Shown: in pieces, positions 4,993 through 63,400 of the stretch
Layout: each line of letters begins with the position of its first letter
Position numbering within the stretch: position 1 is the stretch's first letter
From: Narcine bancroftii
Taxonomy: Eukaryota
Direction of reading: 5' to 3'
NCBI RefSeq assembly: GCF_036971445.1
Contig: NC_091475.1
Coordinates: 26,660,001 to 26,724,000, forward strand
Length of the DNA stretch: 64,000 nucleotides
The notes under the pieces: generated by a model
What the model was told of the DNA's origin: nothing
What the model saw: only the letters and a program-made list of their open reading frames with translations
The model's database searches: none
Position numbers and translations under genes: made by a program

Positions 4993-5629
4993 GTTCTTAT
5001 TCAAAGTTGCTTCATTAAGTTTCAATACACATGTGAAATGCAGACAAACATTGCAACCATTTTCACAGGAGGGAATTAAACATGCTTATATTGGTTAGTA
5101 TTCAGGAAACCCTTTCAACTTCAAATGTTATTGTCTTTAATTTTCACTGAAATAGTTTGATTAAACCTGTATTAATATCCTTCAATGCCTTTGACTGATG
5201 GTGCTAAGTATTCTCTCTGTACTGTAATGGATCACTAATCTAGATTATATGCTCAAATTTGGTTTGGATTTGAACCTACAATCCTTCAGTGTCAGAAGAA
5301 TGACTAAGGTTAGGAAGCTTCTCCTAAAACAGCTCTTGTACCATGCCTTTATTATACATACTGCTGCCTTCTACACTTTGCCTCATGAAGTGATCGCCTT
5401 AGCTTATCTCCATGTAGTCAGATCAAAGAATCTCACAAGAATTCATGGAAACAGACTGGGGGCAGTAGGTCGACTGGGTGTAATTTGGTGGTATGGGGAC
5501 TGTGGTGTTATACCACCAGCCTACTGCAGGGGGCAACATCTGTACCTGCAGGAGTTCATTTCCCAAAAAGGCCATGGAGGCTCAGATGCTGACGTGATTC
5601 AAAATACAGACAGGCACCCAGAAGTTCTG

Positions 5630-6095
5630 CCTTTGATGAGGGGCTCAAGCCCGAAACATTGCTTCTGTATTTTTATCTTTGCTATATAAAGTGCACTGTG
5701 GCCCACTGGCCACCTGCCACATTGACCACCGCCAGTGGGCTGATAACGCCTCAAACCGTGCATCTTGGCGCCTCACAGTTTGGCGGGCAGCAGCCTCCTT
5801 TGAAGAAGACCGCAGAGCCCACCTCACTGACAAAAGGCAAAGGAGGAAAAACCCAACACCCAACCCCAACCAACCAATTTTCCCTTGCAACCGCTGCAAT
5901 CGTGTCTGCCTGTCCCGCATCGGACTGGTCAGCCACAAACGAGCCTGCAGCTGACGTGGACTTTTTACCCCCTCCATAAATCTTCGTCCGCGAAGCCAAG
6001 CCAAAGAAAGATAAAGTGCACTATTTGACCTGGTGAGTTTCTCCAACATTGTATTTTTACTTTAATCATGGTGTCTGCAGACGTTCGTGTTTTAT
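5630..6095 (+). repeat. Penelope-derived short repeat with hammerhead-like core, interrupted by an RTE insertion
   Basis: TTGATGAGGGGCTCAAGCCCGAAAC...gacctggtgagtttctcc. The same family occurs at about 95-188, 8055-8165(-), 23700-23910, 28410-28580, 36385-36490, 41570-41660 and 55545-55610(-), and at the end of the Penelope remnant near 26935. Confidence 0.65.
5698..6010 (+). mobile_element. RTE-clade LINE 3' fragment
   Basis: Encodes CHIDHRQWADNASNRASWR...FPCNRCNRVCLSRIGLVSHKRAC. TSD ATAAAGTGCACT at 5686-5697 and 6011-6022. Same family as 29144-30760. Confidence 0.9.
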
Positions 6096-10150: not shown

Positions 10151-11543
10151 ACAGTTAAGGTTCATCAAGGAGTGTGGGGGTGCAGAGTGGTTTTTCCTTG
10201 TTCTGGTGGTCAAATCAGGTCTAGAAAACTGCATTCATTTGAGAGTGAAGGTTTGGTGCCTTCTGTTGCATTGGATTTTGATTTGTTGCCGGTTAGGTCA
10301 TTTGGACCCTTGCCATAACTGTCAGGAGTCCTTCGTTGTTAAATAAATTATATTTTGTTTCCTTGTGATCTTTTCTCTCCTGCTGGTAGTTGTCACACAG
10401 CTGTCCTCTGCTCTCTCTCAGCCTAAAGGCTATTATTCATGTTGAATCTTGTTCCCAGCTTGTCAGCAGTTCTTTCAGCTGTGGCGGGGTTACTAGAGCA
10501 GAGCCAACTCCTGCCCTCACCTAGTGCCTAAAAGTAAAGTCACTTGCTAACAATCAGGATCAGGCACTCTACTTAATTCACCCACCACTCCTCTGCATGC
10601 CCAAGCCTAACTGAGTGGGCCTGAGACTGAGACCAAATGTACTTTGATGTGATTAGCTATCAACAGAGCCAATCATAGCTTAATGTCCTCAACCATCCAC
10701 TGTACAAATGGTGACAACTCATTTAAATATTTATGGCCGTGGAAATCACAAACACATTCTTGGATATTAGCAATTAATACTTGTATGCAAAAATATATTA
10801 GATATGCTTTTCATTCCACTGACACTGAATTCATAAGACCCTATGACAGGATAGTTATTTCATTTTTTAAAAAGTGGAAAGTATCTGCTTCAAGTGTTGT
10901 AAATAAAGACCAGCACCCACAATAATGGATGTAGCTTATAAAGGGCCAATTCAGATAACAACTTTTCAAAATAGCAGTTATATTCCTTTTTGATCTCTTG
11001 GGAAGTCCACTGGAGATAATGCTAATTCACTTGCTCACTGAGTAGCAAGTAAAAGAAATGGTTTGCCTACACTGTTAGTCACTCATACCATTACTTTACA
11101 AGGCACTAAATGTCACAGGTCTGGCACAAGCTGTTCTTTACTTGTTTACAGCTGAACATCTTTAGATCAACTGGGCAAATGTTATTTCTTGACACTTCTC
11201 AGATGAATCAAAGAAAATCCATTTATAATTACAGTTGGAACAATCATAAGTTCTACAATTAACTCTGGATGAAAGTCTACCTCCCCTTACACAATTATTT
11301 TTCTGTCTCGAGGCAGGAAATTCTATATCGTGCAGGTAGACATACATTGTCGGCAAGCAGTACTGACCACAAGTTACATTCACTTCCTGAATTTTCTACA
11401 ACCATTTTTGGCATCACGTGTGGTTTTTTGGTAAAGTAACATGAACTTAATTTTGTAATGGTGCAGGTTTAATATGTGAAGTCTGAAGGGGAAAAATAGG
11501 CAAACAAATCTCTATTTTTAATCAAACATAAGAAATATTGAGC

Positions 11544-11897
11544 GGTTAAGAAATAATATTGAAATATTCGAACAAGTATAGGAGCCTTACATTAAATACA
11601 ATAGCGAAAACCTACCGGGGACAAACATTACCTAAGTTGATGGAAGGAGAAGGAAAGAAAAGAATGGACTCAGTAGAATTTCTGGTGTATTTTTGTTGAA
11701 TGACAACATTGTCTGACTGGCTTAATGCAACCTAGATTGTATACCTAAAATGGATGAGAGGGGGGGGTGGGGGGGGTGGCTTGGGAGGGGGGGGGGTGGG
11801 GGAGAAAAAGTCACTGTATATGTGTGAAAAAGAAATAGTGTATATCATGGCTAATGTGATTTATGGTGTGAAAAATAAAAAATTTTAAAAAAAAGAA
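11544..11897 (+). mobile_element. 5'-truncated copy of the ORF1-only L1 family
   Basis: Near-identical to the reverse complement of 14430-14780. AATAAA plus A-rich tail. TSD AAGAAATATTGAGC at 11530-11543 and 11898-11911. Confidence 0.92.
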
Positions 11898-12009
11898 AAG
11901 AAATATTGAGCCATACTTTCCACTTTTGTTATAATTGTGTCAGACTGCAGCCAGAAAGTAGCCACAAACCATTCACACATTTACAGCTACATAATTTTAT
12001 AAGATAATT

Positions 12010-12267: not shown

Positions 12268-12915
12268 AAATAGTAAGTACAGAAAAAGAACTAGCAACAA
12301 GGGAAGTTACAACAAAAATAAGAGAATTGGCGGACAAAAAAATAAAATACGAAACATTACAAACGTATAAGGTGGAGAAGAACATAATGAAAATAAAGCA
12401 GAAGTACTACGAGCTAGGGGAAAAAATGCACAAAATATTAGCCTGGCAACTTAAAACAGAACAAGCTAAAAGAACTGTATTGGCATCAAGGAAAAAGGAC
12501 AAACAAATTACATATAACCCAACCGAGATCAATGAAAACTTTAAGGAATTCTATGAACAATTATACTGAACTGAGAACGAAGGGAAAGAAGACAAAATAG
12601 ATGAGTTTTTAGCTAAAACTGAACTACAGAAATTGCAAGAAGAGGAGCAAAACAAATTGATAAAACCATTTGAAATAGAGGAAATACAGGATATATTAAA
12701 AAAGCTGCTGAACAATAAAACGCCTGGAGAGGATGGACTCCCAATAGAATTCTATAAAACATTTAAAGAGTTATTAATTCCTCCTCTCCTGGAAGTAATG
12801 AACCAGATAGAAGAAACACAAAACTTGCCAGATTCATGTAAAACAGCAATAATTACAGTAATATCAAAGATGGGGAAAGATCCACTAACACCAGCATCGT
12901 ATAGACCAATATCTT
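12268..12915 (+). mobile_element. L1 ORF2 internal fragment (linker to start of RT), with a premature stop
   Basis: Peptide YYELGEK...LAWQLK...FKEFYEQLY*...KTPGEDGLPIEFYKTF...SYRPIS, typical fish-type L1 ORF2. Confidence 0.88.
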
Positions 12916-12929
12916 AGCAATATGTTAAT

Positions 12930-13611
12930 GCTAACATGCAGGTTCAGAAAGCTGTGAAGAAGGCAAATGGAATGTTGGCTTTCATAAAGAGGGGATTGGA
13001 GAATAGGAAAAGAGACGCCCTTCTGCAGTTATACAGGGCCCTGGTGAGACCCCACCTGGAGTATTGCGTCCAGTTCTGGTCTCCAAACTTGAGGAAGGAC
13101 ATACTAGCTATAGAGGGTGTGCAGCGCAGATTTACAAGGTTAGTTCCAGGGATGGCAGAGTTGTCATATGCAGCAAGGCTAGAAAAACTGGACTTGTATC
13201 CATTGGAGTTTAGAAGGATGAGGGGGGACATGATTGAGGTATATAAAATCATCAGGGGGATAGACAAGGTGAAGTCTGATTACTTGTTCCCAATGATGGG
13301 GGAGACGAGGACTAGAGGGCATAGTTTAAGAATACAGGGTAGGCCCTTTAGAACGGAGATGAGAAAGCATTTTTTTACCCAGAGAAGTGTGAATCTGTGG
13401 AATGCTCTGCCACAGAGGGTGGTAGAGGCGGATTTGCTGACTATGTTCAAAAGAGTGTTAGATAAGACTCTTGTGGGTAATGGAGTTAAGGGTTATGGGG
13501 ATAAGGCTGGAAAGGGGTACTAATGGTAATGATCAGCCATGATCTAAAATGGCAGTGCTGGCCCGACGGGCCAAATGGCCTACTCCAGCTCCTATTGTCT
13601 ATTGTCTATTG
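12930..13611 (+). mobile_element. CR1 LINE 3' end
   Basis: Peptide LYRALVRPHLEYCVQFWSP...RRMRGDMIEVYKI...TRGHSL...FFTQR...WNALP. 3' UTR gatcagccatgatc...ggcctactcc with a (CTATTGT)n tail. Confidence 0.93.
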
Positions 13612-13749: not shown

Positions 13750-14425
13750 CTGTAGAGCTCTTTCACTGACATTTCCTGATGAGATTATTGAATTGGTGAA
13801 TTTATTGCCCTCCTTCAACCCCTCTACCAGTATATTTTAACCACTACACACTCCCCTTCCACCCTCTCCCTTACAATTTTTCCATTTGATAATATCTCTC
13901 TCTGCTTGCAAAAATCCTTATGAATTGTTCTTTTGACCACTAAATTTACCTCTATTAATTATTATTTTTCTCTGTGACTTGTAAAAGTCATTTGGAAACA
14001 TTACTCCAACCAATCAAAGAAGTGGTGATGAGCAAACAATGAACTGCTCAAGGAACTCAGTGGGGTCAGTCAGCTTCCATGGATAGAAATGGTCAGGACC
14101 CCATCCCTACCTCAAATATTGACTGACCAATTCTATCCACAGAAGCTGTCTGTCCCCCTGAGATGGTTCAGCAGCTCATCCATTTGCTCAAGATTCCAAC
14201 TTTTGAAATATCTGTGTTACACAAGGTACATTCATGCTTTATTGTGTTCCATAGAAAAGCTAACATACAAAACATGAAGTTCATGTATTGGAAACAATCA
14301 CTTAACAAAAAGATGGTTGAAAAATTAACAATCCTTTCTTGTTTAGATGTTTCTCCACCAGGGTCTCCAGTCTAGTGTCTCCTTGACATAACACCCTTCA
14401 ATGTTTCCCGGGCCAGATTCACTTT

Positions 14426-16856
14426 TTTTTAATTTTTTAAAATTTTTTATTTTTCACACCATAAATCACATTAGCCATGATATACACTATTTCTTTTTCA
14501 CACATATACAGTGACTTTTTCTCCCCCCCCCCCTCCTCCCAAGCCACCCCCCCACCCCCCCCCCTCTCATCCATTTTAGGTATACAATCTAGGTTGCATT
14601 AAGCCAGTCAGACAATGTTGTCATTCAACAAAAATACACCAGAAATTCTACTGAGTCCATTCTTTTCTTTCCTTCTCCTTCCATCAACTTAGGTAATGTT
14701 TGTCCCCGGTAGGTTTTCGCTATTGTATTTAATGTAAGGCTCCTATACTTGTTCGAATATTTCAATATTATTTCTTAACCTATATGTTATTTTTTCTAAT
14801 GGAATACATTTATTCATTTAAATTTAGTAGTTTCTTCCTTTTAATTTGGTTATGTATTCCATTAATATTTAAAGTCATATAGTTCAGCGTAGCCCTTTTA
14901 TATTTTGTTTATCTTCTCTTTCCGTTTTTCCATCATTACCTTTCCTCCTTTTCCATTTCTGTTTTCTTATTTTCAACTCTTTATAAGACAACATTCCTAC
15001 AACATCCAACATTTTCCTTATTCTCCTATTTCTATCTTATTTATCCCCAATCTCCCCTTCCCCTCCTGAGTTGTCCTTTATCCCTTGTCGGACAACCACA
15101 TCTCCCCTCTCCATTTGGATTTGCGAATCCACTCGCAAGCGTCAACTGATTTTGCAGTGACCGCTATTTCCCCCCACCCCGCCCCCCCCCAGAAAAGATT
15201 TCACTTTTCTATGTCACAAAGGTCACTCTTTTAATTCCCTCCTTATTCTCTCTATTCCATTACCTTCCCTTATTAATTCTTGTCTATACTATCTATATTT
15301 TCCTCTAAGTACAGATACATTCACGTATGCACATTGTCTCTATTCACTCTTATACCTCTTTACCCGCATACATATCAATCGTGATCATTTTTACTCTCAT
15401 TACCCGTCTTCATCCCTCAGTCTATTTTTGTCTTTACCCACATACATATCAATCGTGATCATTTTTACTCTCATTACCCGTCTTCCTCCCTCAGTCTATT
15501 TTTGTAATTGTTCTGCAAATTTTCGTGCTTCTTCTGGATCCGAGAATAGTCTGTTTTGTTGTCCTGGAATAAATATTTTCAATACCGCTGGATGCTTTAG
15601 TATAAATTTATACCCTTTCTTCCATAAAATCGCCTTTGCTGTATTGAACTCTTTTCTCTTCTTTAGGAGTTCAAAACTTATATCTGGATAAATGAAGATT
15701 TTTTGCCCTTTATACTCCAGTGGTTTGTTGCCCTCTCTTACTTTTTCCATTGTCTTCTCCAGTACCTTTTCTCTTGTAGTATATCTTAGGAATTTTACTA
15801 CAATAGATCTTGGTTTTTGTTGTGGTTGTGGTTTAGAGGCCAATACTCTATGTGCCCTTTCTATTTCCATTTCTTGCTGTAGTTCTGGACATCCTAGGGT
15901 CTTAGGGATCCACTCTTTTATAAACTCCCTCATATTCTTGCCTTCTTCATCTTCCTTAAGGCCCACTATCTTTATGTTATTTCTTCTGTTATAATTTTCC
16001 ATTGTATCTATTTTTTGAGCTAGTAGTTCTTGTGTCTCTTTAGTTTTTTTATTAGATTCCTCCAATTTCTTTTTTAAGTCTTCTACCTCCATTTCTGCTG
16101 CTACTGCCCGCTCTTCCATCTTGTCCATTTTCTTTCCCATTTCTGTTAAGGTCATCTCTATTTTATTCATTTTCTCTTCTGTGTTGTTTATTCTTTTTCT
16201 TAAATCCTTAAATTCCTGTGTTTGCCATTCTTTAAATGACTCCATGTATCCTTTAATAAGAGAAAGTACCTTCTTTATCTTGCCTTTCTTTTCTTCTTCT
16301 ATTTCACTGTACTCTTCCTCTTCCTCTTCTTCTTCCTCTGGGTTGGCCATCTGTTGTTTCTTTGTTGCCCTTTCCTTCTCTTCTTTCTTGTTTCTATTGT
16401 CTTCTGTGGTCTCTTCTTGCTGCAGGTGTTCTGCAGCTGTCGTTGCCGGCTGTGGAGATCGACTCCCCAGCTGGTCCCCCCTCCCGTCGGTGTGTTTTTT
16501 TTCATTCGCATCGCGCATGCGCGAGGAATCGCGCATGCGCGGTTGCGCACTTTTACTCGGCTCAGCGAGCCATTTTTGTAGTCCATTATTTACCGACCTG
16601 AGGGAGCGGGTTTCTCTCTCCGCAGCGGGCCTCTTCGGACAGGTAAGGCCTTCACCTTTTTCCTCCTTTGTCTTCTCTTCCTCTCTTCTTACCGTTGCTT
16701 TCAATTTTTCTTTTTTTGTCGCCATCTTCTTTCCACCTTTATACTCACTTTTCTGTAACTTTTATTTCTGTGGCTTTGTGTTTTCCTTTGTTTTTCCCGA
16801 CTTTTCTGGAGAGGGCTGGAGTTCACCGTCCGGCCACTACTCCATCACGTGACTCC
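14426..16856 (-). mobile_element. Full-length non-autonomous L1 derivative: intact ORF1, ORF2 deleted (HAL1-like)
   Basis: TSD TCCCGGGCCAGATTCACTTT at 14406-14425 and 16857-16876. CpG-rich 5' end, ORF1, spacer, fused ORF2 N- and C-terminal vestige (14690-14896), G-rich 3' UTR, AATAAA and A tail. Confidence 0.9.
15496..16725 (-). CDS. L1 ORF1p (coiled coil, RRM, CTD); true start may be the ATG at 16350 (MANPEEE)
   Basis: 409-aa open frame with a heptad coiled coil and the L1 ORF1 motifs ENYNRRNNIKIVGLKE, IERAHR, PRSIVVKF, IFIYPDIS and HPAVLKI. Confidence 0.92.
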   Translation of the reverse strand: MATKKEKLKATVRREEEKTKEEKGEGLTCPKRPAAERETRSLRSVNNGLQKWLAEPSKSAQPRMRDSSRMRDANEKKHTDGRGDQLGSRSPQPATTAAEHLQQEETTEDNRNKKEEKERATKKQQMANPEEEEEEEEEYSEIEEEKKGKIKKVLSLIKGYMESFKEWQTQEFKDLRKRINNTEEKMNKIEMTLTEMGKKMDKMEERAVAAEMEVEDLKKKLEESNKKTKETQELLAQKIDTMENYNRRNNIKIVGLKEDEEGKNMREFIKEWIPKTLGCPELQQEMEIERAHRVLASKPQPQQKPRSIVVKFLRYTTREKVLEKTMEKVREGNKPLEYKGQKIFIYPDISFELLKKRKEFNTAKAILWKKGYKFILKHPAVLKIFIPGQQNRLFSDPEEARKFAEQLQK

Positions 16857-18414
16857 TCCCGGGCCAGATTCACTTTGAAGTGACTTCCAGCACTTGTGAC
16901 CGTCACAGAGAACCTTCTCCTTAAGCAGCTTATTTGCTTTATTCAGTGCAAGTTAGCTTTATTTATGATGAGCCACTCACAACATTGACTCCCTGATTAT
17001 TCCCACCCCCCCCCCCAATCCCCCAGCACAGTTAGTGGGAACTGTAGGATGCTGAAGTGATCAGGCAGCACAGGTTGGTGGACAGTCTGCATGACCATCT
17101 CTTTATCCTTCTCAGACCTGTTGGATTTGGTAACCCTCCATATTACTTCAGACCTCAATAAAATGGGAAACGTCCAACAATTTGTCAGAGGCTTTGTTAA
17201 AAGAGTACCTGAAGGAATTTGAAGCAGTTATTGGATATAATGGACATTCCCTTGGTCGTGTATTTTAGTTTCGAAAAAACAACCAATCTCATGGAAGTAC
17301 TCAACAGCATCAAAGGTTTTGAACTGGAACATTGACAATATCTTTTGTTGCACTGATGCCTCAGATTCATGCCTCCAAAATGGATTTGTTTAACTGATAC
17401 ATTGGACTGGCTTCAGCTGTTAACTATACTAGCTGAGGTCTGGTCCATACTGGCAGATTCTGATCCAAGTCTATCAGCTCATCCCACCACTAGGCTTGCC
17501 CATTCTTGCTGCAATTTCCAGTTTTAAACTGCAAAGATAATTCCCCAAACCCAGCACCGTGTTTTATGTGTGTTCACCCAACTTCTTAAAACATTTCTAT
17601 TGCTTCAACTTTATTCATCTCCAAACATTGGTTAATCTCACCTAGTAACTAGAACGTGTGCATGAATGGACAGCGAGTATAAATTCCAGGAAACAGAACG
17701 AGGCCATAACACCCAGCCTATTTTGCACATTTTGAGATTCAATATCCAAATTAGCATTGTGTTCCCCAGAGTTCCTATTTAACTTTTTTCCACACAAAGC
17801 TGATTGATTCTGGGAACCTGGTATGGGGGCCAGGACTTGTGAGGGTGTTGATGGCAAGCAGGGTTCCCAAAGGAACCTAAGCATTGACAGCTTCTTAATT
17901 GTATCAGGGATTTGGAACCCAGAGCAGAGGAAGGTGACTCTGGTGCCTCAAGCCAAGTCCCCCATTGGAATGTACGGAAGGCCGTGCATTCCAGGGGCAA
18001 AAAGGAACTCAGGAGACAGTGGCATCACTGAAGGTGGCAGGATTCATGTCTCTGACAGGATTCTCTTCTGCTTCTTTCTTGCCTTGAACTAGTCGCTTCT
18101 CTTTCGCTCTTTTACAGGGCAGTCAAAGGAAAACAAATGTTTTGTATTTTATGTGCATGACATTCTACAATTTTAAGTCTGCTTTGATTTTTATAACTCT
18201 GTTCAGGTAATAAGACTATTATAGCCATGGCAGTTATTTCATTTACAAGGAAGTAATAATTGACAATATATAGAGGAAGCCTGGTTAAATATAAAGTCTA
18301 ACCACGCAGAAGTAAAATAAATGGTTACTGATCTTCCTCCTGGTGAAATGGAGGTGTTTTAATGCTGAGAATTAATAATCCCTGTAACCTACATAGTAGT
18401 TTTTGCTAATTCAG

Positions 18415-28290: not shown

Positions 28291-29143
28291 CTTAATTAAA
28301 TTAAAATTAATTCCTTTGGGTTTATCTAAGCTAGCGACAACCCAAGAGAAACTTGTGATCTGGTGAGTCACATGCTGCATCCAGGAATATAATAGCAAAA
28401 CAAGAGAAGTGGTCACAGTAAAACACAATGCTGGAGAAACTCTGCAGGTTAAACAGTGGACTTTATATAGCAAAGATAAAGATACAGAACCAACATTTCG
28501 GGCTTGCTGTTTGACCTGCTGAGTTTCTCCTGCCTTGGTTTAACTTCAACCACGGTGTCTGTAGACTTTCGTGTTTTATTTGTGGTTAAAGTCACAATGG
28601 ACATGGAGTGTCATTTGCGCAGCACCCTTCTTACTGGAGCAGGAGGTGCATGTGATCGATCTCTATTCTTTGTGCGCCTTTGCATAATGCAGCACATGGG
28701 TCCTTTCTATTCCAGCAGAGCTGAACACAATTCATTTCCTGCTAGTAAAGAGTAGGATGGCATGACAGCAGTAATGTGAATCCAGAATATTAAATCAGAA
28801 TGTACCACAAGCAGATGGGATTGGCTTGCCTAATATCTAGCTGGTGTGTACAGGGTACCTCATGCTGCTCAGGGGTTGTGTACAGGTAAGAGTCATGATA
28901 CTTCATTTTGCAATTATCCTCTGTATCAATGAATTTGACAATCCACAGTAATCTACAATCAGCCAGCAGCTCCATGTACATTTGACCCATGTACCTACAT
29001 CTAAAACTTTGTAATGTCACTGAGCAAGCCACTGATACTTAAAACAGACATGCTGCTAACACTAAAGGGCAAGCACAGTACTCAGAGTGGGTCTTGGCCT
29101 AATGATTGCAGTAAAATTGTGAACACTACAACCCTCACCAAAG

Positions 29144-30760
29144 TCTTCTTCTTTGGCTTGGCTTCGCGGACGAAGATTTATGGAGGGGGTAAAAGTCCAC
29201 GTCAGCTGCAGGCTCGTTTGTGGCTGACAAGTCCGATGCAGGACAGGCAGACACGGTTGCAGCGGCTGCAGGGGAAAATTGGTTGGTTGGGGTTGGGTGT
29301 TGGGTTTTTCCTCCTTTGCCTTTTGTCAGTGAGGTGGGCTCTGCAGTCTTCTTCAAAGGAGGTTGCTGCCCGCCAAACTGTGAGGCGCCAAGATGCACGG
29401 TTTGAGGCGATATCAGCCCACTGGCAGTGGTCAATGTGGCAGGCACCAAGAGATTTCTTTAGGCAGTCCTTGTACCTTTTCTTTGGTGCACCTCTGTCAC
29501 GGTGGCCAGTGGAGAGCTCGCCATATAACACGTTCTTGGGAAGGCGATGGTCCTCCATTCTGGAGACGTGACCCATCCAGCGCAGCTGGATCTTCAGCAG
29601 CGTGGACTTGATGCTGTCGACCTCTGCCATCTCGAGTACTTCGACGTTAGGGATGAAAGCGCTCCAATGGATGTTGAGGATGGTGCGGAGACAACGCTGG
29701 TGGAAGCGTTCTAGGAGCCGTGGGTGATGTCGGTAGAGGACCCATGATTCGGAGCCGAACAGGAGTGTGGGTATGACAACGGCTCTGTATACGCTTATCT
29801 TTGTGAGGTTTTTCAGTTGGTTGTTTTTCCAGACTCTTTTGTGTAGTCTTCCAAAGGCACTATTTGCCTTGGCGAGTCTGTTGTCTATCTCATTGTCGAT
29901 CCTCGCATCTGATGAAATGGTGCAGCCGAGATAGGTAAACTGGTTGACCGTTTTGAGTTTTGTGTGCCCGATGGAGATGTGGGGGGGCTGGTAGTCATGG
30001 TGGGGAGCTGGCTGATGGAGGACCTCAGTTTTCTTCAGGCTGACTTCCAGGCCAAACATTTTGGCAGTTTCCGCAAAGCAGGACGTCAAGCGCTGAAGAG
30101 CTGGCTCTGAATGGGCAACTAAAGCGGCATCGTCTGCAAAGAGTAGTTCACGGACAAGCTTCTCTTGTGTCTTGGTGTGAGCTTGCAGGCGCCTCAGATT
30201 GAAGAGACTGCCATCCGTGCGGTACCGGATGTAAACAGCGTCTTCATTGTTGGGGTCTTTCATGGCTTGGTTCAGCATCATGCTGAAGAAGATTGAAAAG
30301 AGGGTTGGTGCGAGAACACAGCCTTGCTTCACGCCATTGTTAATGGAGAAGGGTTCAGAGAGCTCATTGCTGTATCTGACCGACCTTGTTGGTTTTCGTG
30401 CAGTTGGATAATCATGTTGAGGAACTTTGGGGGACATCCGATGCGCTCTAGTATTTGCCAAAGCCCTTTTCTGCTCACGGTGTCGAAGGCTTTGGTGAGG
30501 TCAACAAAGGTGATGTAGAGTCCTTTGTTTTGTTCTCTGCACTTTTCTTGGAGCTGTCTGAGGGCAAAGACCATGTCAGTAGTTCCTCTGTTTGCGCGAA
30601 AGCCACACTTTGATTCTGGGAGAATATTCTCGGCGACACTAGGTATTATTCTATTTAGTAGAATCCTAGCGAAGATTTTGCCTGCAATGGAGAGCAACGT
30701 GATTCCCCTGTAGCTTGAGCAGTCTGATTTCTCGCCTTTGTTTTTGTACAGGGTGATGAT
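29144..30760 (-). mobile_element. RTE-clade LINE, 5'-truncated, RT domain to C-terminus, one frameshift near 30380
   Basis: Peptides YRGITLLSIAGK...GFRANRGTTD...FVDLTKAFDTV, GVKQGCVLAPTLF, LFADD, FTYLG, QLRWMGHV and a terminal CxxC...H. (GAA)-type tail. Confidence 0.95.
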
Positions 30761-31249
30761 AGAGCAGGCAAAAAAGAGAGCAACTAAGTCGGTGTTATCT
30801 GCAAAAAACAAAGCCACAATGATTAACAGTTTTTCTTCTCTCATCATCTGGCATGACAGTCACAGTATCTATCTAGCCACAATGTAAAAATGAAAACCAC
30901 CATGAAATAACATTTTAAATTAAAGCCTAAAACAATGTCATATGTACATGAAAGTGTCTCGTTGTGCATGTTGCCTGTGTGCCATTTCCTGTTCTAGAGC
31001 AGCAGCTCAGTTTTACTTCAGTATTGCTGCATGCAGTGGTAGACAGCAGAGGCATTTCAGGAGGACCTCACATTGCTGTGGCTCCAGAAGCCTCTGTTTC
31101 AGACTGTGCCATCTGCATGAAAAATAGTACTTTGGATGAGGTGGATGGCAACTCAGAGCAAGGGTGGAGTGAATCAAGTAAGCTATCACCATGAGAAATT
31201 CATGGAAATTTACAGCACAGAAGGACACCATTAATCTGTCAAGTCCACT

Positions 31250-48400: not shown

Positions 48401-51400
48401 AAATTCCCTTTTTTGGATGCTGTCATGATAGTTCTCAACAGATGGGTCATGTTCTAAAAGAGGGAGCTTTTAATGAAATATGTTGATTCTGGTAAAAATA
48501 TTTTATTCATTACCTGATGTTTGAACATGCAGGGTTGTTAGTCCAGACCGATTGCTTCCTTGCAAAGCCCATTGATTCTGGGAGCTCAAGACCCATTCTT
48601 CTACTTCGCAGAAGTAAATACCACTGTCGCTAGGTGCAGCATTCTGTACCATCAGCTTGTAGTTATTGTTGGAAACCTTGGCACTTTGAAATTTTAACTT
48701 CTGAGAATTTGTTTGCAAACTTCCATAGTACTTGAGGATGTTATTACGGTCACTTTGGAGAAGCTTTTTCCACGGTGCCTTAGGATCCACCTCATTCTGG
48801 AAGTACCAAGTCACTGAAAACTGTGACTGTGCCTGTGTTTGGTTAATAATAAGGCACTCAAGTTCAAAAGCAGCATCCTCACTGATCGATTCATGTTTGT
48901 TATCATCAAAAACATGTAGATTTGCACCTGCCGAACCAGCAAAATATAAAGAAATGGTGAAGCCTGCTATGCATCGATAGAAACTGCACCGCATGTTTGG
49001 CCTTAAACATGAGGGAATTGTTACGAGCCCAGAGGACCCCAAAACCCAGCAGCAATAGATATTTGCCAAGACAAATGGTTACTTAAACAAAAGTTGCTTT
49101 TAATTATCTTTAAACATGAAAACATGATCACATTTTATCTTATCACTATTAAGTTACTTAACCCCCTTCTNNNNNNNNNNNNNNNNNNNNNNNNNNNNNN
49201 NNNNNNNNNNNNNNNNNNNNNNNNNNNNNNNNNNNNNNNNNNNNNNNNNNNNNNNNNNNNNNNNNNNNNNNNNNNNNNNNNNNNNNNNNNNNNNNNNNNN
49301 NNNNNNNNNNNNNNNNNNNNNNNNNATTCACAGTCCAATCTCACTTCTCATTCCTCCAAGTTCACTGGTTGCAGGCAATTCTTATACTGTGCACAGAATT
49401 TAACATTTATGAAGTTCACCAGGCTTTGGTGCTAGAAAGGTAAATGGTTACCACTCAGGAAGGTTCTTGTCAGTTTTCAGAGAGAGATTTGTTGTTCATT
49501 GGACACCCACAACTGATTCCTTGTAACCAGCCACTTCAGTGTCTTGCCGAAGAAACTTGCCACCTCAAGGTTTTCAAGATGATAACCTCTTTCTCTCAGG
49601 TCACCACAGAGTTCCTTTTTGTTTCCCTTATTTCAAGTGAAGCATTAGGCAGCAAGTCCTCTCCTCTTGCATAAACCACAAGGGCTTTGACCAGACTGAA
49701 CTAAAATGTGGGTTTTCCACAAGCTTGGCAGCTTGTCCTGTTCCAGTCCCAGCTGTTGCTGCTGACTGTAAAACTGAAGAACTGATCTCTCTCTCTCCCT
49801 CAGAGAAAAAAAGCTGTTCAACTCTCTCTGCTTGCAAACACCACATGACCCTCTTAGAACAGCAAGCTGCACTCCAGACAGCCTGCGGCTCCAAATGACC
49901 CTTCTGATCTCTTTCATCTGTTGCTTTTCAAAACAATCCATTAATGAAGTCTCTTGGGCACTCGCCAAAGTTTTTGCAAAGGCCCCCAGGAGCCGCCCTG
50001 TCTGGCTTGAGCAGAGCTCCAGTATTTTAAATGAGATCTGTTTTGAAGTGTTTGTTTATGACCTACACTAAAAAACCTACCCCAAATATTTCTCAAAAAC
50101 ATATCTATAATCTGTCACAGAATGTAAATCGTAATTTCTACATAGTCAAACCAAAATGTAAACAAATAACCTGGAATAAAATCCAGAAAGTGCACTTTAA
50201 TTAAATGTGAATTGTTTAATTACAAATTTAAAACTGAGAGCACAGAGCAAATAAAGGAAAAAATTGTCTGTCGCAATCATTATGGAGAGCACTGTACATC
50301 ATTGTCCCTGATTCTCATTCTGTCCAATCCTGATATTACCTAAGTAAATCCATTGTAGTATCACAGCTAACAGTAGAGTTAGGGTCTGCACTGCTCCTTC
50401 ATGCTATGCTCTCTATTCATGTTCCTTGTTACTTATTACAATCCAAGTATTCTTTTTTTATCAACATTATGCTTAGTTGATCATTTAAAACTATCCTGTG
50501 GTCCCTTGTGATCTCTATAATTCACCATTATCTAAAAAGATAAAGCAAAAAAAAGAGCTAAAAATTTGCAAACCCAAAAAACCAATCTAATAATGGTGCT
50601 ATGAAGGAGATGTGTAATTGTCTGCTTGTTGCCAACATATCTTGTGCAAGGAATTGCTTGCTTCGAGAATGCCAATTGTAATTTTGTTTGCATAATGTGG
50701 ATTTAGCACAAAATTATTTCAGTTGTCCTGCACATCTACCATTCCTGAACTCCTCGGAATGACTTCGGTATTGCATTACTTTTAAAAAAAAACAACCACT
50801 GCTTGGTTTACTTACAGCAGCCAAGGCTCAGCAATCAAAGATACACCGTTTCATCTTCATGTAAAGTGTGGACACCCAAGCCAGGGGCTCAGGAAAGTCC
50901 ACAAGGTCAGAAACGAGAGACTAAAATAAAGGTGGACAGGGTGATCAATGCTCAGAGAGGTGCCAGTGGGCAACGTGAATGTAATCAAAGACATGGGGAA
51001 AGTCAGGGATTTACAGCCAGAAAACAACATGAAATTAAAATCTAGCTCACCACTCTTTCCTTAATGAAGATAATGAAAAATTCTCTTTGAATGGCTGACA
51101 AGGTGTATTTCTTTTTTAAAATTCTTACACTCCTCTTTCTTCGCTCCACTCCCCTAACTGATTGCATATAATTATTTTTCCACTTTAATACCACAGCTTA
51201 TCCACTTAGGAAACTGATTAACTTACAAAATGCAATTTTGCATATTTCAGAAAACTGGGATAAAGTACACTGCAATGATTTCCCTGGTTTCAACATAGAA
51301 GCTTTATATTTTCCAGGCTACAGTCATGCAGCAATCTTTAGAACCACAAGAGGTAAAAAGTTGTTCCTTTCGAATCTGCGGTCATATTTCTTTTCTCCAC

Positions 51401-54400
51401 AAATGGTCAATATGCTTACGCAACTTAATTGAATAAGTGCAACCTATTCTCTATTGCAGTAAAAGAAACAACGTGCAGCCTTAAAACCAATAAATCAAAT
51501 TTATGAAACTTGATACCTGGTGTATGGATTTCAACAGTTGTCCTTGCTGACACAGCGTCTCCCACGTTGTACCAAATGTTGTTGGGGTCCAAAAGCCATT
51601 CTGTGACATGGCAATAGTAATTCCCTCCATCATTTACATCCGTTTTCTCTATAATTAATTTGTAAAGGTCCTTTGAAGTTTTCACAACTTGGAATTTCTT
51701 CCTCTTCTGATCATTGTTCTGGAATTCCCCATAGTACTGAACAATATTATTACGATCAATATTCAGAATAATGTCCTCTTTTTGTCTCTGTGACTTCGTG
51801 AAGAACCAAGTGACCGAGAACTGAGAATCATTTTGAGTTTGAGCAAAAATTTGACAATCGAGTTCAACCATGTCATTAATCATCTTTCGTGTTGTTGATT
51901 CTTGCTGTGCAAGTTGCAAGAGACTTACTACGAAAGGAGAAAATATTACATGATTATACCTTCATTATATTTTTTTGTAGCATTTAAGCTTATTGCATCA
52001 CTCAAGTCATATTTATTTTGGTTGCATAACAGAGAAGTTGCAACCTGGATCTCTGTTCAATTATTCACAACATTTATTAACAGAAGGGAGAGAAAAGCCA
52101 CTTATCCAAGTTCACTAATTATTCAAAGATAGATGGAATTCTCAACATTTTAGGTAATAGTATTAAATGAAAGAAAGAGAGAGAATGAAGTGTGAAAAAC
52201 TGGCAGAAAGAATGCAGATCAATGAAAACCTTGAACCTGTTGTACCAATCTAGAATTAATTAAATCTGCATTGGGTAATATCATTATTTAATCATCAAAC
52301 TCTTTTTAAAAATAAATCTAACATCCAATTACAAAATGTCAGCTATAAACTGTAAAGACAAAAAAGAACTAGTACCTTACCTGGGGGAAAAACAACAACT
52401 TGCACTATGTTAGACGTTGCACTGGCTTTCATGACCCATTCATTTGGATGTTGCCTTTTCCATAACTCTGCATTACATAAAAACTTCCCAGCTTCCAGGT
52501 TACTGGCTCTGGAAACACGCAGATGGACATTATTGGACGCCGTTTTTTCTACTGTTATTTTCCCTTTGAACTCAACTTCCTTGTCTCCCCACACAATTGA
52601 GGTGTCATAAGAGAAAGTAACAAGATGGTAACTATCATTAGAATTAGCAGGTTGAAATTTCCAGGATACAGACGCTGGTAGATGGCGGAGACTTGAAGGT
52701 TGAATGTAACACTGGATGGAAAATGTACCATAGTAACTTGTAGTTGGTGAACGGGTTATGGCAGTAACTTTCAGTATGCTTTCTGTAAACATTAAAAAAA
52801 GAGAAATTAATGAAACTCACCAGTTCTTTTGAGAATATTCGGCAATCTCAAACTAAACTAATCTGGAGTAAAGCTTTGATGTTTCCAAAGTGAACAATAA
52901 TTGTTGAAAGTAACATCAAATCAGTTCCCTGGGTTCTGAGCTCCCCATCAACAGACAAGCTGACATACCTGCCACTGATTTATGTCGAACTAACTCACTT
53001 GTGCAGATTTCACAGTTAACTCTCCCAGAAGACTTGGCTCTCAGCTGGAATAGAGCTTCCAAACCCCCCACAAATGGTTTGTTTGAGTGGTTTCCGTAAC
53101 TGGAGGGTTCACAGTAAACCCCTCCCATATAAAAACACTAAAGAAATTCTGACTTCCTGATTGCCTCCTCCCCTGCTTAGCCAACTGTTAAAGCTGCAAA
53201 ATACATTATGAATTTGTCAAATGTGTGCAAGATAGTTTTCTTAATCAATACATAGAGGAACCGACTCGGGACGGTGTAATACTGGATCTCCTGTTAGGGA
53301 ATGAGATAGGTCAGGTGCCTGAGGTTAATGTTGGAGAACAAATTGGGTCTAGTGATCACAACTCTATTAGTTTTAGGGTAGTTTTAGGGAAGAGCAAAGA
53401 AGGGCCTAAAGTTGAGGTTCTGGATTGGAAAAAAGCAAATTTTGAAGGAATGAGAATGGCTTTGGGGAGTATTGAGTGGGACATGATTTTTTCAGGAAAG
53501 GATGTAAATGAAAAATGGAGAATATTCAAAGAAGAAATTTTGAGAGTACAGAGTAGATATGTCCCAGTGAGGATTAAAGGAAGGCTGGAAGTCATAGGGA
53601 GCCTTGGTTTTCGAGGAATATTAGAAATTTGGTTAGGAGAAAGAGGGAGGTGTACAAGAGGTATAAACAGCAGGGTGTTGAGAAATTGAAAGAGGACTAC
53701 AAGGAGTGTAGAAAAAAATCTTAAGAAAGAAGTTAGAAAGGCCAAAAAGAAGCACGAAGAGGCTTTGGCAGGCAGAGTAAGAATAAATCCAAAGGGTTTC
53801 TATAGGTACATTAAAAGTAAAAGATTAGTGAAGGATAGAATTGGACCCCTTGTAGATAGGGAGGGTAGGCTATGTGAAAAGTCAGAGGAGATGGGGGAAA
53901 TTTTAAATGATTTCTTTTCCTCAGTATTCACAAGGGAAAAAAATATTGTACCAGTTGAAGTAAAGAAAAATAGTGGGGAGGTCATGAATCATATAAGGAT
54001 AACTGAGGAGGTAGTGATGGCAGTGTTAAAAAAGATAAAGGTGGACAAATCTCCGGGTCCGGACAATGTATTCCCAAGGACACTCAGGGAGACCAGTGTA
54101 CAGATAGTGGGGCCATTAACAGAGATATTTAGGATGTCACTGGTCACGGGGGTAGTGCCAGAGGATTGGAGGGTGGCTCATGTTGTTCCGCTGTTTAAGA
54201 AAGGGTCCAAATGTAAACCTGGAAATGATAGACCTGTGAGTCTGACGTCTGTGGTGGGTAAGTTGATGGAAAGTGTTCTGAGGGATGGCATTTACAAATA
54301 TTTGGAAGAACAGGGATTGATAGGTAGTAGTCAGCATGGTTTTGTCAGGGGTAGATCATGCTTAATAAACCTATAGAGTTTTTCGAGGGGGTTACAAAAA

Positions 54401-60400: not shown

Positions 60401-63400
60401 GATATTTGGGTGCCCAGGCTCATGCTGTATGACTAAATTTAACATTTAAAATAAAAAGATAAATAGCATCCTACACCCCATAATACCAACCAAGCAATGT
60501 ACTACCTCTCATTTTCCCACTATTAGCATGCTGGTTGTTGAATATGCGAGCCCATGTTTGGATAGACATGTTTAACTTTGCTTTTAGAAATAGTGTTAGC
60601 TGGGCAAGAGCAGCTGAACTGTTTGCTTCCCAAATGTATCCAAGATACATCCCAGATACATCCCAAAATCATCAAGAATGGAGGAATCATCTTATATTCT
60701 GATATCAATCCAGACTGTGGCTTCCAAAACATTTCTGATAGTTTACAAAAAAAGAACTTTCCAATTCCACAGCATCCATTGCCCTTTTCACCTTGGTTTA
60801 TATTCTCTTTAAGACAAAATCTTTGTCTGGAGACTTATAACATTCATGTTGCTTTTTGTTCTTTATTTATTGGAAATCACCAAAGAAATGTGTTACTTTG
60901 AAGGACTAATAAACCACATGCTGCCAGTTCAAGCTGGAATTTCAAGCCACCACTGGCATTAAATTTGGCAGCGAAACTCTATTTCTTGCCTCATCATGGA
61001 TGAGGTTTCCATCATAGGGGATGGGCAATGATGCAATCTCACCCTTCTCTCCTATATGTATAAAAAACATAATAGCATGGCCTAACTTTGGATCAAGTTT
61101 ATACTCTATCACTGATTCTTTCAGCGATAAATCTTATAGCAATACACATAGGGCTAGCTCAGAAAATGACCTTTCTCGATATGATTTCACCATGCCAAGC
61201 GATGCATGTAGAGAATTGGATTGGAGGTCCAGACTGGCAGAGAGGATCACTGTAGTACCCCCTGTCCCACCATCCATCAAAGAGATCTACTGGGTTGTTG
61301 CCTGAAGAGGGGATGCAAAATTGTTGAGGACTCCTTCCACCCCGCGCACATCATCTTTCAGCCACTCCCATTGGGAAAGAGATTCAGGAGTATCAGAGCC
61401 ACCAGGCTGTGAAACAGCTTCTTCCCGTGGGCGGTGAGAATGCTGAACGACAAAAGGAACTGCTCACACTAACACTCTAATATTTACTAAACAAGATCTA
61501 TTTATTTATATGTATATTTGTTCTTCATATATATCATATGCTTTAAATGTTTCTGTCTGGATGTAGCTAGCACTTCAAGAAACTGCAGTTGTATACAGAA
61601 ATACATATAATTATCAATGATCCTTACCCATGCTTTTAACATTCACTGTGACATTATCAGTCCGTCTTTCAGTCAGTTCCTGCCAAGATTTGTCCTGGTC
61701 TTGAATCCACTCGATGCTATGGCAGTAAAACTGCCCCTGCTCAGACTTCTGCAGCTTGTGGATGGTGAGTTTGAAAGAGGTGGTTCCAATCTTGTCCAGC
61801 TGTACATCTCCCGATTTCTGTCTTTGCTTGTACAATTCTCCAGCATGTAGCGTGAAACCTTTTGTTAGAGAGATGACCCTGATATTCTGATTTTCTTTCT
61901 GTAGGTACCATGTGACGGCCACATGTGTGTGGTATGGTGTTTGTTTATATACTTCACAGACCAATTCCAGCGAATCACCTTCTACTTTATTTAGGACTTT
62001 GGGTACCAATGTTGCCCTGAGCGTATCTGGAATAACTGCACAAGAACAAGTTATATTATGATATGCAGACTCCATATTGAAAGGACATAGGCCATATACA
62101 AGAGTGTAATAGTTCCCTGATCTTATTTCTTTTACCTTGAGACATTGACAAACAATTCAGTTTTTCCACTCTGTAATATCCTGAATTGAACAAGAATACT
62201 GCTCTTGGGATTTCAGAAGGTTCTGACTGAAAAGTGCATGGGTATTGGGTAAAAGATGGACTAGGCTGGAATACCTGATTGACTGCACCCATTTGGTCCA
62301 AGCAGTCTCCATGCACATTTTTTCAGTACATTAATGACCACATAAAGCAAGACAAACCTTATTGCTGATTGCTTTTTCAGATTAACAAATGGATTATACA
62401 TACAGATGCTGTACAATGTAGCAGCATTTCTGTCCTTGGGGTTTAATTTTACCAAACACATTGTCATCAGTCTCTGGGACATGGGGAGCTGCAAGCAACA
62501 AACAATAAAGTTTTATACTGTTCTTAATTTGCTTGAGCTGTCTATTCATTTGATTTAGTGGCCAGTAAATGTGCTTGTGGTTTTTCTACCTTTTCCCACA
62601 AATCACTAAAGATTCCTACAAGCAGCCTACCTGCATCTTGCATGATGTGTTGCTTTTTGCTTAATTGAATTTCAAACATTAAATACAGTTAAACATTTGT
62701 GTATTTTGTCATGCTGCTAGGTTTTGTAATTGGGAAATGCAATGTGCTTCATTATGAATTATGGACTCAAATATTGATTTTGCTTTTTAGATATTACCTG
62801 ATAGGCTGAATTTTTCTTTTGACTGCATTAAGAAATATTGGACCTTTTTTTCGTGCTATATATATAAAATTTCATGGGTGTATTGCTCTTGGGATTCAAC
62901 ATTATGTATTCTTTGTTTTCAAATAAGGTTGGTCTTGAGGTGTTACATTTTGAAATTCTTTTGCAGGGTTTTTATTATGTTGCAATTATGCACTGACACA
63001 TATTTAATTGGAAGAAACCGCCTTGCTGCATAATTTCAATAGGAATGGTCACAGCTGAAGAGAAAAGAGAAGTACCTCACCTGTCAAATTCACCAGTGCA
63101 TTGTAGGATCCCCAGTATGTACTTTCAGTGTTGGGGGTGTAGCACTCAAACTCTCCTTCATCACTTTTCTGCAGATTTGTAATATGTAACCGTACAGAGT
63201 CATTTTTGATTCTCTCTATGTAGATCTCCCCTGCTTCAACTCTTCTTTTGTACATAGCATAAGGAAAGTTGGAATTATATGTGCTGATAATCTGGATTGG
63301 CAATGTAGGGTTCCTTGAATGAGTGATAGACCATTCAAAGTTCTGCTCTACAGATTGCTGAATTCCACTCACTTCACATTGAATTGCTATATGACGTCCT

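Follow-up and report, generated by a model that had tools for sequence, protein, structure and literature searches.

A young family of ORF1-only LINE-1 derivatives in the ray Narcine bancroftii that likely borrows ORF2p and may follow the ORF1 alleles of its helper

The window analysed here, a 64,000-nucleotide stretch of the genome of the ray Narcine bancroftii (GCF_036971445.1, NC_091475.1, positions 26,660,001 to 26,724,000), contains on its minus strand a 2,431-bp derivative of the long interspersed element LINE-1 (L1) that retains open reading frame 1 (ORF1) and has lost nearly all of ORF2. We estimate at roughly 80% the probability that this element represents a young, single-origin family of ORF1-only L1 derivatives, of the half-L1 (HAL1) type, which likely borrows ORF2p from an autonomous L1 and likely makes its own ORF1p. 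The lineage goes back to a single 3,590-bp deletion within one copy of an autonomous 6-kb L1 family, and the ORF2 start codon was lost afterwards.

A dispersed family with one deletion junction

The element runs from 16856 to 14426 between two identical 20-bp target-site duplications (TSDs; 14406-14425 and 16857-16876). Its full length, A-rich end, CpG-rich 5′ end, and uninterrupted 409-residue ORF1 (open from 16725 to 15496) are as the original prediction, made from the letters of this locus, had described them. The same holds for an ORF2 reduced to 26 codons that begins with AGG (14896-14894) where 47/47 full-length parent-type copies read ATG, and that runs out of frame, at 14819/14818, into the final 42 ORF2 codons. 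The features are as follows, with coordinates of the window:

16857..16876, no strand: 5′ target-site duplication, 20 bp, identical to 14406-14425
16726..16856, minus: 5′ untranslated region (UTR), 131 bp, where the CpG-rich region begins
15496..16725, minus: ORF1, 409 residues, uninterrupted frame, L1 ORF1p by sequence and fold
16508..16550, minus: CpG palindrome, ORF1 codons about 59-73, DNA fold -26.9 kcal/mol, z -5.45
15357..15505, minus: 74-bp tandem duplication across the ORF1 stop, one unit missing in some copies
14897..15495, minus: inter-ORF region, 599-bp spacer kept from the parent L1, 92-98% identical to parent-type copies
14819..14896, minus: ORF2 stub, 26 codons, endonuclease-type start, ATG changed to AGG (family marker), from copy comparison
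14818..14819, minus: deletion junction, 3,590 bp of ORF2 gone, 1-bp microhomology
14689..14818, minus: ORF2 tail in a shifted frame, final 42 codons, containing an internal stop
14426..14688, minus: 3′ UTR, comprising a G-rich tract, AATAAA (14446-14451), and an A-rich tail, 92-97% identical to the parent 3′ end
14406..14425, no strand: 3′ target-site duplication, 20 bp, identical to 16857-16876
11544..11897, plus: second family copy, 5′-truncated, 14-bp TSD (11530-11543, 11898-11911)

Read on the element strand, the 5′ TSD begins with AA and follows TC, as is most common in the family. The CpG observed/expected ratio is 0.98 in the first 450 bp of the element vs. 0.41 in the remainder; the 5′ UTR contains a CACGTG word (16846-16851), a putative E-box, and the 5′ 29-mer has 5,784 exact matches in the genome, related families included. 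The internal stop in the ORF2 tail is common to 65 of 86 family copies, and the truncated second copy at 11544-11897 carries three family-type alleles (element positions 2078, 2113, and 2368).

Searches of the 3.33-Gb genome for exact matches to the 30 bases of the junction returned 1,783 hits, vs. 0 for a control, from which the family would comprise about 1,800 or more copies. The first 100 junction matches on one contig (C1), in positional order, served as the family sample, and the helper sample was likewise drawn from C1. All 99 correctly framed stretches share the same join and 85 of them are 5′-complete (stretch L182, whose flanks are reversed, lies outside the full-length set, and the same copy is covered by L227). 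TSDs of 9-22 bp, all different and mostly starting with AA, were detectable in 81 of the 100 sampled copies, although the shortest may be due to chance. Trees were built from the copies with both ends (85 family and 47 parent-type copies, 15/100 and 13/60 having been dropped) plus the window copy, and place all 86 family copies in one clade (FastTree support 0.75). Markers of the family occur in 82/86, 83/86 (the ATG-to-AGG change), and 85/86 of these copies vs. 0/47 parent-type copies; AGG stands at the ORF2 start in 81/85 full-length family copies. The mean pairwise distance is 1.7% among the first 51 family copies.

Relative to parent copies that hold both domains, the deletion removes 3,590 bp, comprising ORF2 codons 27-1223, with 1 bp of microhomology at the join; the endonuclease and reverse transcriptase (RT) are gone, as predicted. 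Splicing was rejected as the origin of the deletion. In SpIREs, the missing segment is bounded by a GT-AG splice donor and acceptor, and the segment deleted here does not end in GT-AG on either strand. A one-off post-insertion deletion, a segmental duplication, or a spliced L1 RNA of the SpIRE kind would fit the layout of a single copy and nothing beyond it; faced with 1,783 dispersed junctions, 81 distinct TSDs, one clade with its own markers, and no GT-AG bounds, such an origin is vanishingly improbable.

The original prediction had proposed a mobile, independently derived non-autonomous family and had opposed to it a junction unique to this locus; the recurrence of the junction, the distinct TSDs, and the single marked clade bear the proposal out. 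The family nests within a local autonomous L1 at about 95% identity, which rules out descent from HAL1, HAL1B, or RNHAL1 and agrees with independent derivation. Some copies combine the same ORF1 with a full ORF2; these constitute the helper family and leave the claim standing. The features found are those of a HAL1-type element: an L1-type ORF1p (coiled coil, RRM, and C-terminal domain (CTD)), no endonuclease or RT, a 5′ UTR and an A-rich 3′ end, amplification in the deleted form (dispersed copies, distinct TSDs, own markers), and an ORF1 that appears to be maintained. The GT-AG bounds of a SpIRE and the intact ORF2 of an autonomous L1 are both absent.

Parent, helper, and related L1 lineages

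The parent of the family is a young 6-kb autonomous L1 with which it still coexists. The same ORF2 start, continued by true ORF2, has 2,881 exact matches genome-wide, the first 60 of which form the helper sample; ORF2 reaches at least 1,260 residues in 22 of these 60, both ORFs are intact in 11/47 full-length helper copies, and one natural helper ORF2 matches RVT_1 and Exo_endo_phos above the Pfam cut-offs. Two stretches (L233 and L230) have a near-root family ORF1 haplotype yet continue into ORF2, as seen from the first bases past the break, and thus mark the immediate parent lineage.

Undeleted sequence around the right break is found 10,843 times vs. 2,881 for the ORF2 start, so that long elements are mostly 5′-truncated, whereas family copies reaching the junction are complete in 85/99 cases, two truncation patterns that are not strictly comparable. 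Short length would plausibly give more promoter-bearing offspring, as is stated for rat HAL1 in the available excerpt (PMC8535693). TSD lengths and flanking dinucleotides are the same in family and helper. Across 2,182 sites, 0/86 family vs. 9/47 helper copies have a neighbour at 6 or fewer substitutions (p = 5e-5, one contig), and the family may have slowed before the latest wave of the helper.

The original prediction had also sought the autonomous partner in a fragment at 12268-12915, and here it did not hold. The fragment (12268-12918) was rejected as the partner, as it belongs to another L1 family, a cousin with 541/647 nucleotides (84%) and 175/216 amino acids identical to the true parent, and the relatives of the fragment match the element at only about 70-78% where aligned (5′ part and ORF1). 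This ORF2 fragment represents an abundant family in its own right, with 5,094 first-look candidates, the best 40 of which are at 95-96% identity, self-match aside.

Three further stretches (L141, L142, and L175) represent another family with an ORF2 deletion, which arose independently within the L1 lineage of the parent. Its join is in frame and leaves a 192-residue mini-ORF2 with an intact ATG, and its junction has 54 exact matches, 8 of which follow one another at intervals of about 17 kb near 384.1 Mb of C1, with others on other contigs.

Maintenance of ORF1 and allele sharing with the helper

The ORF1 product matches human ORF1p (2ykp, phmmer E 1.7e-13), and the best Foldseek match of its predicted structure is the human ORF1p trimer (2yko, E 8e-11); Pfam by itself returned no more than a sub-threshold match to Transposase_22 (E 0.02). 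The model, built from a 97-sequence alignment (mean pLDDT 77), comprises a low-confidence N-terminus (about 1-146) that is probably disordered, a long helix (147-247) predicted to be the coiled coil, and the RRM and CTD (250-406). The closest named proteins are from Narcine bancroftii itself (70-92% identity). The ORF1 homologues retrieved are usually 284 residues long, a length matching a start at Met126, which may be a second ORF1 start; the frame from the first ATG, with its long N-terminus, is open here and likewise in a 70%-identical relative (protein record P0002). Public protein records P0002, P0003, P0004, and P0011 fuse or mislabel ORF1 as host genes (FAM122B, GrpE-like, syntaxin-binding protein 6). 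Record P0011 joins a Cys/His-rich N-terminus, which we take to resemble RING and B-box, to ORF1-like sequence, and may be an artefact of annotation or a case of exaptation.

The claim that the family keeps its own ORF1 is supported, with moderate strength, by the substitutions on the trunk of the family tree, defined as the path from the root to the 43 youngest copies. ORF1 codons 1-245 took 17 trunk changes (15 amino-acid-changing), codons 246-409 took none, and 1,031 non-coding sites took 9; the N-half differs from the C-half at p = 1e-4 and from the non-coding sites at p = 0.006. At 0.20, 0.22, and 0.22 per site, private changes are, by contrast, spread evenly over these three regions. Through 26 trunk substitutions, 0/99 frameshifts and stops were fixed, which is notable because deletions in the palindrome at 16508-16550 strike about half of the copies (5/8 old, 16/35 middle, and 21/43 young family copies, and helper copies too). 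Deletions of 31 and 18 bp make this palindrome a hot spot, as do inversions of its loop; the 31-bp deletion taken alone does not cluster on the tree (p = 0.24, and p = 0.11 in another analysis) and recurs in helper copies.

These observations, namely the one-sided trunk, the even private changes, the lack of fixed disablers, and the unclustered, recurrent 31-bp deletion, run counter to the idea that ORF1 is a passenger in a family too young to have decayed, with ORF1p and ORF2p both supplied in trans as for a short interspersed element (SINE). Several others lean towards a passenger or weigh against a maintained ORF1. The frame is intact in 25/85 full-length family copies and broken in 60/85, a low fraction that is nevertheless as expected for copies decaying after insertion. 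Constraint on the C-half (RRM/CTD) relative to non-coding trunk sites reaches p = 0.06, and trunk sites 219 and 1491 hinge on where the root is placed. Pooled, the hairpin frameshifts are clustered on the tree (19 steps vs. 25.1, p = 0.002), the +2 frameshift is weakly so (p = 0.04), and the 31-bp deletion occurs in 12/17 old-type copies (6/17 already in the sample), so that a broken ORF1 may have been inherited along side branches. Every sampled family and helper copy, moreover, comes from a single contig. On balance we consider a passenger ORF1 improbable, and the coding capacity of ORF1 appears to have been kept in the source elements.

Two side observations concern the palindrome. The 31-bp frameshifting deletion (about 16506-16536) runs between 7-bp direct repeats, the last of which is altered in middle and young family copies and in the youngest helper group; the deletion is rarer where the repeat is altered (3/43 young vs. 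4/8 old family copies, and 0/8 youngest helpers), and the alteration may reflect parallel selection for a stabler ORF1. The loop occurs in both orientations within nearly every subfamily, as in the youngest helper group, whose 7 undeleted copies split 3 to 4. Either way round the reading frame is preserved and two codons flip (in the helper, Asp-Ser or Glu-Glu), likely through recurrent micro-inversion or, less probably, as an assembly artefact.

The N-half alleles that rose on the family trunk are frequently those of the helper. Ten of the 17 also occur in at least 10 of 37 main-line helper copies, vs. 1/9 non-coding trunk alleles (p = 0.036); chance identity would give fewer than 1 where 10 were observed. 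The shared alleles include K117E, A127V, I150V, E152D/V153I, S155A, M186I, and I189M, and S140R is shared below the threshold (14/43 family, 13/15 helper). A single long recombination tract was rejected as their source, since the family retains markers of its own at codons 173, 177, and 190 inside the shared region. Individual chimeric copies, comprising family copies with a helper tract (L181, L190, and L218) and helper-type copies with a family-type tract (L160, L263, L267, and L231), show that exchange occurs both ways. Sporadic helper alleles in single family copies number 0.8-1.4 per available site in all regions vs. a background of 0.07-0.13, a rate about ten times background that still includes CpG recurrences.

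Uptake of helper alleles in the young family copies is biased by site. It reached 9/46 amino-acid-changing vs. 2/51 silent or non-coding sites (p = 0.023), and 8/28 sites in codons 111-245 vs. 3/69 elsewhere (p = 0.002); 0/13 silent sites (codons 111-409) and 1/36 non-coding sites were involved, vs. 8/21 amino-acid-changing sites in codons 111-245. Selective uptake of helper ORF1 alleles is likely, though not proven. Our tentative reading, to which we give somewhat less than even odds, is that the half-L1 co-evolves with its helper through repeated short-tract capture of acidic-tract and coiled-coil ORF1p alleles that are then kept by selection, with tracts also flowing back. At the same odds, the selection would be for compatible mixed ORF1p trimers or for evasion of a shared host factor.

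Several caveats apply. The boundary at codon 111 was picked after the data had been seen, linked sites shrink the 8-10 shared alleles to perhaps 5-6 events, and amino-acid-changing vs. silent uptake within codons 111-245 gives p = 0.07. Along the helper trunk, the ORF1 N-half shows 33 amino-acid-changing vs. 9 silent changes, about the neutral ratio and so not by itself proof of positive selection. The family was not established as donor of the acidic tract of the youngest helper, as that tract is also present at 12/30 loci of an older sister lineage in which ORF2 continues past its start.

With the family and its cis ORF1 taken as real, the shared alleles might be neutral, having arisen by gene-conversion leakage or in mutation-prone purine repeats and drifted in a tolerant region. 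The sporadic helper alleles found in every region agree with this, as do the GAA-rich composition of the region and the small number of independent events; however, leakage is roughly even along the element while trunk uptake is uneven (8/21 in codons 111-245), markers 3-10 nt away were kept, and some alleles arrived singly, so that we regard neutrality as somewhat unlikely. Independent point mutations under one host restriction factor, that is, convergence in place of transfer, would explain why the order of arrival of I150V differs between lineages, why the two lineages hold different new residues at codon 121 (P vs. A), and why flanking markers were not carried along, yet direct chimeras exist and one short transfer more readily accounts for the paired change at the adjacent codons 152-153; we consider convergence unlikely. 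Site by site, transfer and convergence are inseparable in these data, and chance identity is excluded in either case.

L1 elements use an internal 5′ promoter, cis binding of ORF1p to their RNA, and target-primed reverse transcription by ORF2p. On this basis, the family RNA would be transcribed from the retained CpG-rich 5′ end as an internal promoter, coated in cis by its own ORF1p, and converted to DNA through target-primed reverse transcription, with helper ORF2p acting in trans, while short tracts would leak between family and helper by template switching or gene conversion. The sequence runs listed, which are contigs of guessed or unknown type, gave no sign of expression, a result that speaks neither for nor against it. 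Less certainly, selection may favour amino-acid-changing alleles in ORF1 codons about 111-245, so that the family ORF1p follows that of the helper, whether by matching it or by escaping the same host factor.

Surrounding sequence and comparison with known elements

Elsewhere in the window, exon-sized minus-strand frames at 48503-48994 and 61614-62075, and also at 51425-51883 and 52343-52792, likely belong to a multi-Ig-domain host gene, which we presume to be IGSF3/CD101-like; the two frames that were scanned match the immunoglobulin (Ig) V-set. Fragments at 12936-13523, 29202-30847, and 53891-54376 read like other LINE types, presumably CR1-like and RTE-like, and a Pfam search of 12936-13520 gave no match. 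Regions 5249-6049 and 29014-29571 share translated words and look like copies of a further repeat.

HAL1 elements, in the available excerpts, are ORF1-only and L1-derived, with repeated independent origins by ORF2 deletion that make them a polyphyletic class (PMC5753468, PMC2241872, PMC3627910, PMC8535693, PMC13756887, PMC5786205), and rat RNHAL1 is given as 98% identical to currently active L1 (PMC5753468, PMC2241872, PMC3627910, PMC8535693, PMC13756887). Like the mammalian elements as described there (rat RNHAL1 and guinea pig HAL1), the ray family combines ORF1 alone, an ORF2 deletion, high copy number, a retained promoter end, and a maintained ORF1 with near-identity to an active L1. Unlike HAL1, which these accounts place in mammals, it has a ray host and an independent origin, and its scar, stub, and tail are still readable. 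Sharing of ORF1 alleles with a helper does not appear in these accounts.

Two non-autonomous LINEs outside the L1 clade also bear an ORF1, namely HeT-A (Jockey clade) and Ag-Sponge (CR1 clade), and multimerisation of proteins of this type with those of the autonomous partner has been suggested, according to the excerpt available (PMC5786205); the ray element differs from both in clade and in being dispersed with L1-type TSDs. Recombinant mouse L1 families, as far as that account is available, likewise exchanged ORF1 coiled-coil segments between related lineages, for which strand-switching and DNA-level models are discussed (PMC3600994). In mouse, the partners are autonomous and the segments large (PMC3600994), whereas in the ray ORF2 is missing from one partner and many tracts span some tens of bases. 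L1 of fish, frogs, and lizards is described, in the available part of another report, as several divergent coexisting families whose full-length progenitors are few, whose tree is not cascade-shaped, and in which ORF1 shows no arms race (PMC5381506); the word "shark" is absent from that text. The ray resembles these hosts in the coexistence of divergent families (the 84% cousin in the window) and departs from what is reported for them in its thousands of 5′ ends, its ladder-like helper tree, and the rapid amino-acid change in the ORF1 N-half (PMC5381506).

The part of the literature covered yielded no account of a HAL1 in rays or sharks, nor of ORF1 exchange between HAL1 and helper, and a fish or shark HAL1 may already be listed in Repbase or in Bao and Jurka 2010. 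We regard the family as a new, independently derived HAL1-type family in a ray, and the apparent tracking of helper ORF1 alleles would be the part new to specialists. The half-L1 lifestyle, described for mammals in the sources available, would thereby extend to a ray. Parent, deletion scar, and subfamily ladder are all readable at less than 5% divergence, so that sequence can test whether a HAL1 needs its own ORF1p and whether that protein must match the helper's. The helper itself looks more mammal-like (many full-length copies, a ladder-like tree, and a fast ORF1 N-half) than the non-mammalian L1 of the published accounts, as far as these are available. If true, the co-evolution of ORF1 would mean that an L1 arms race like that of mammals also takes place outside them, and that a non-autonomous element takes part in it.

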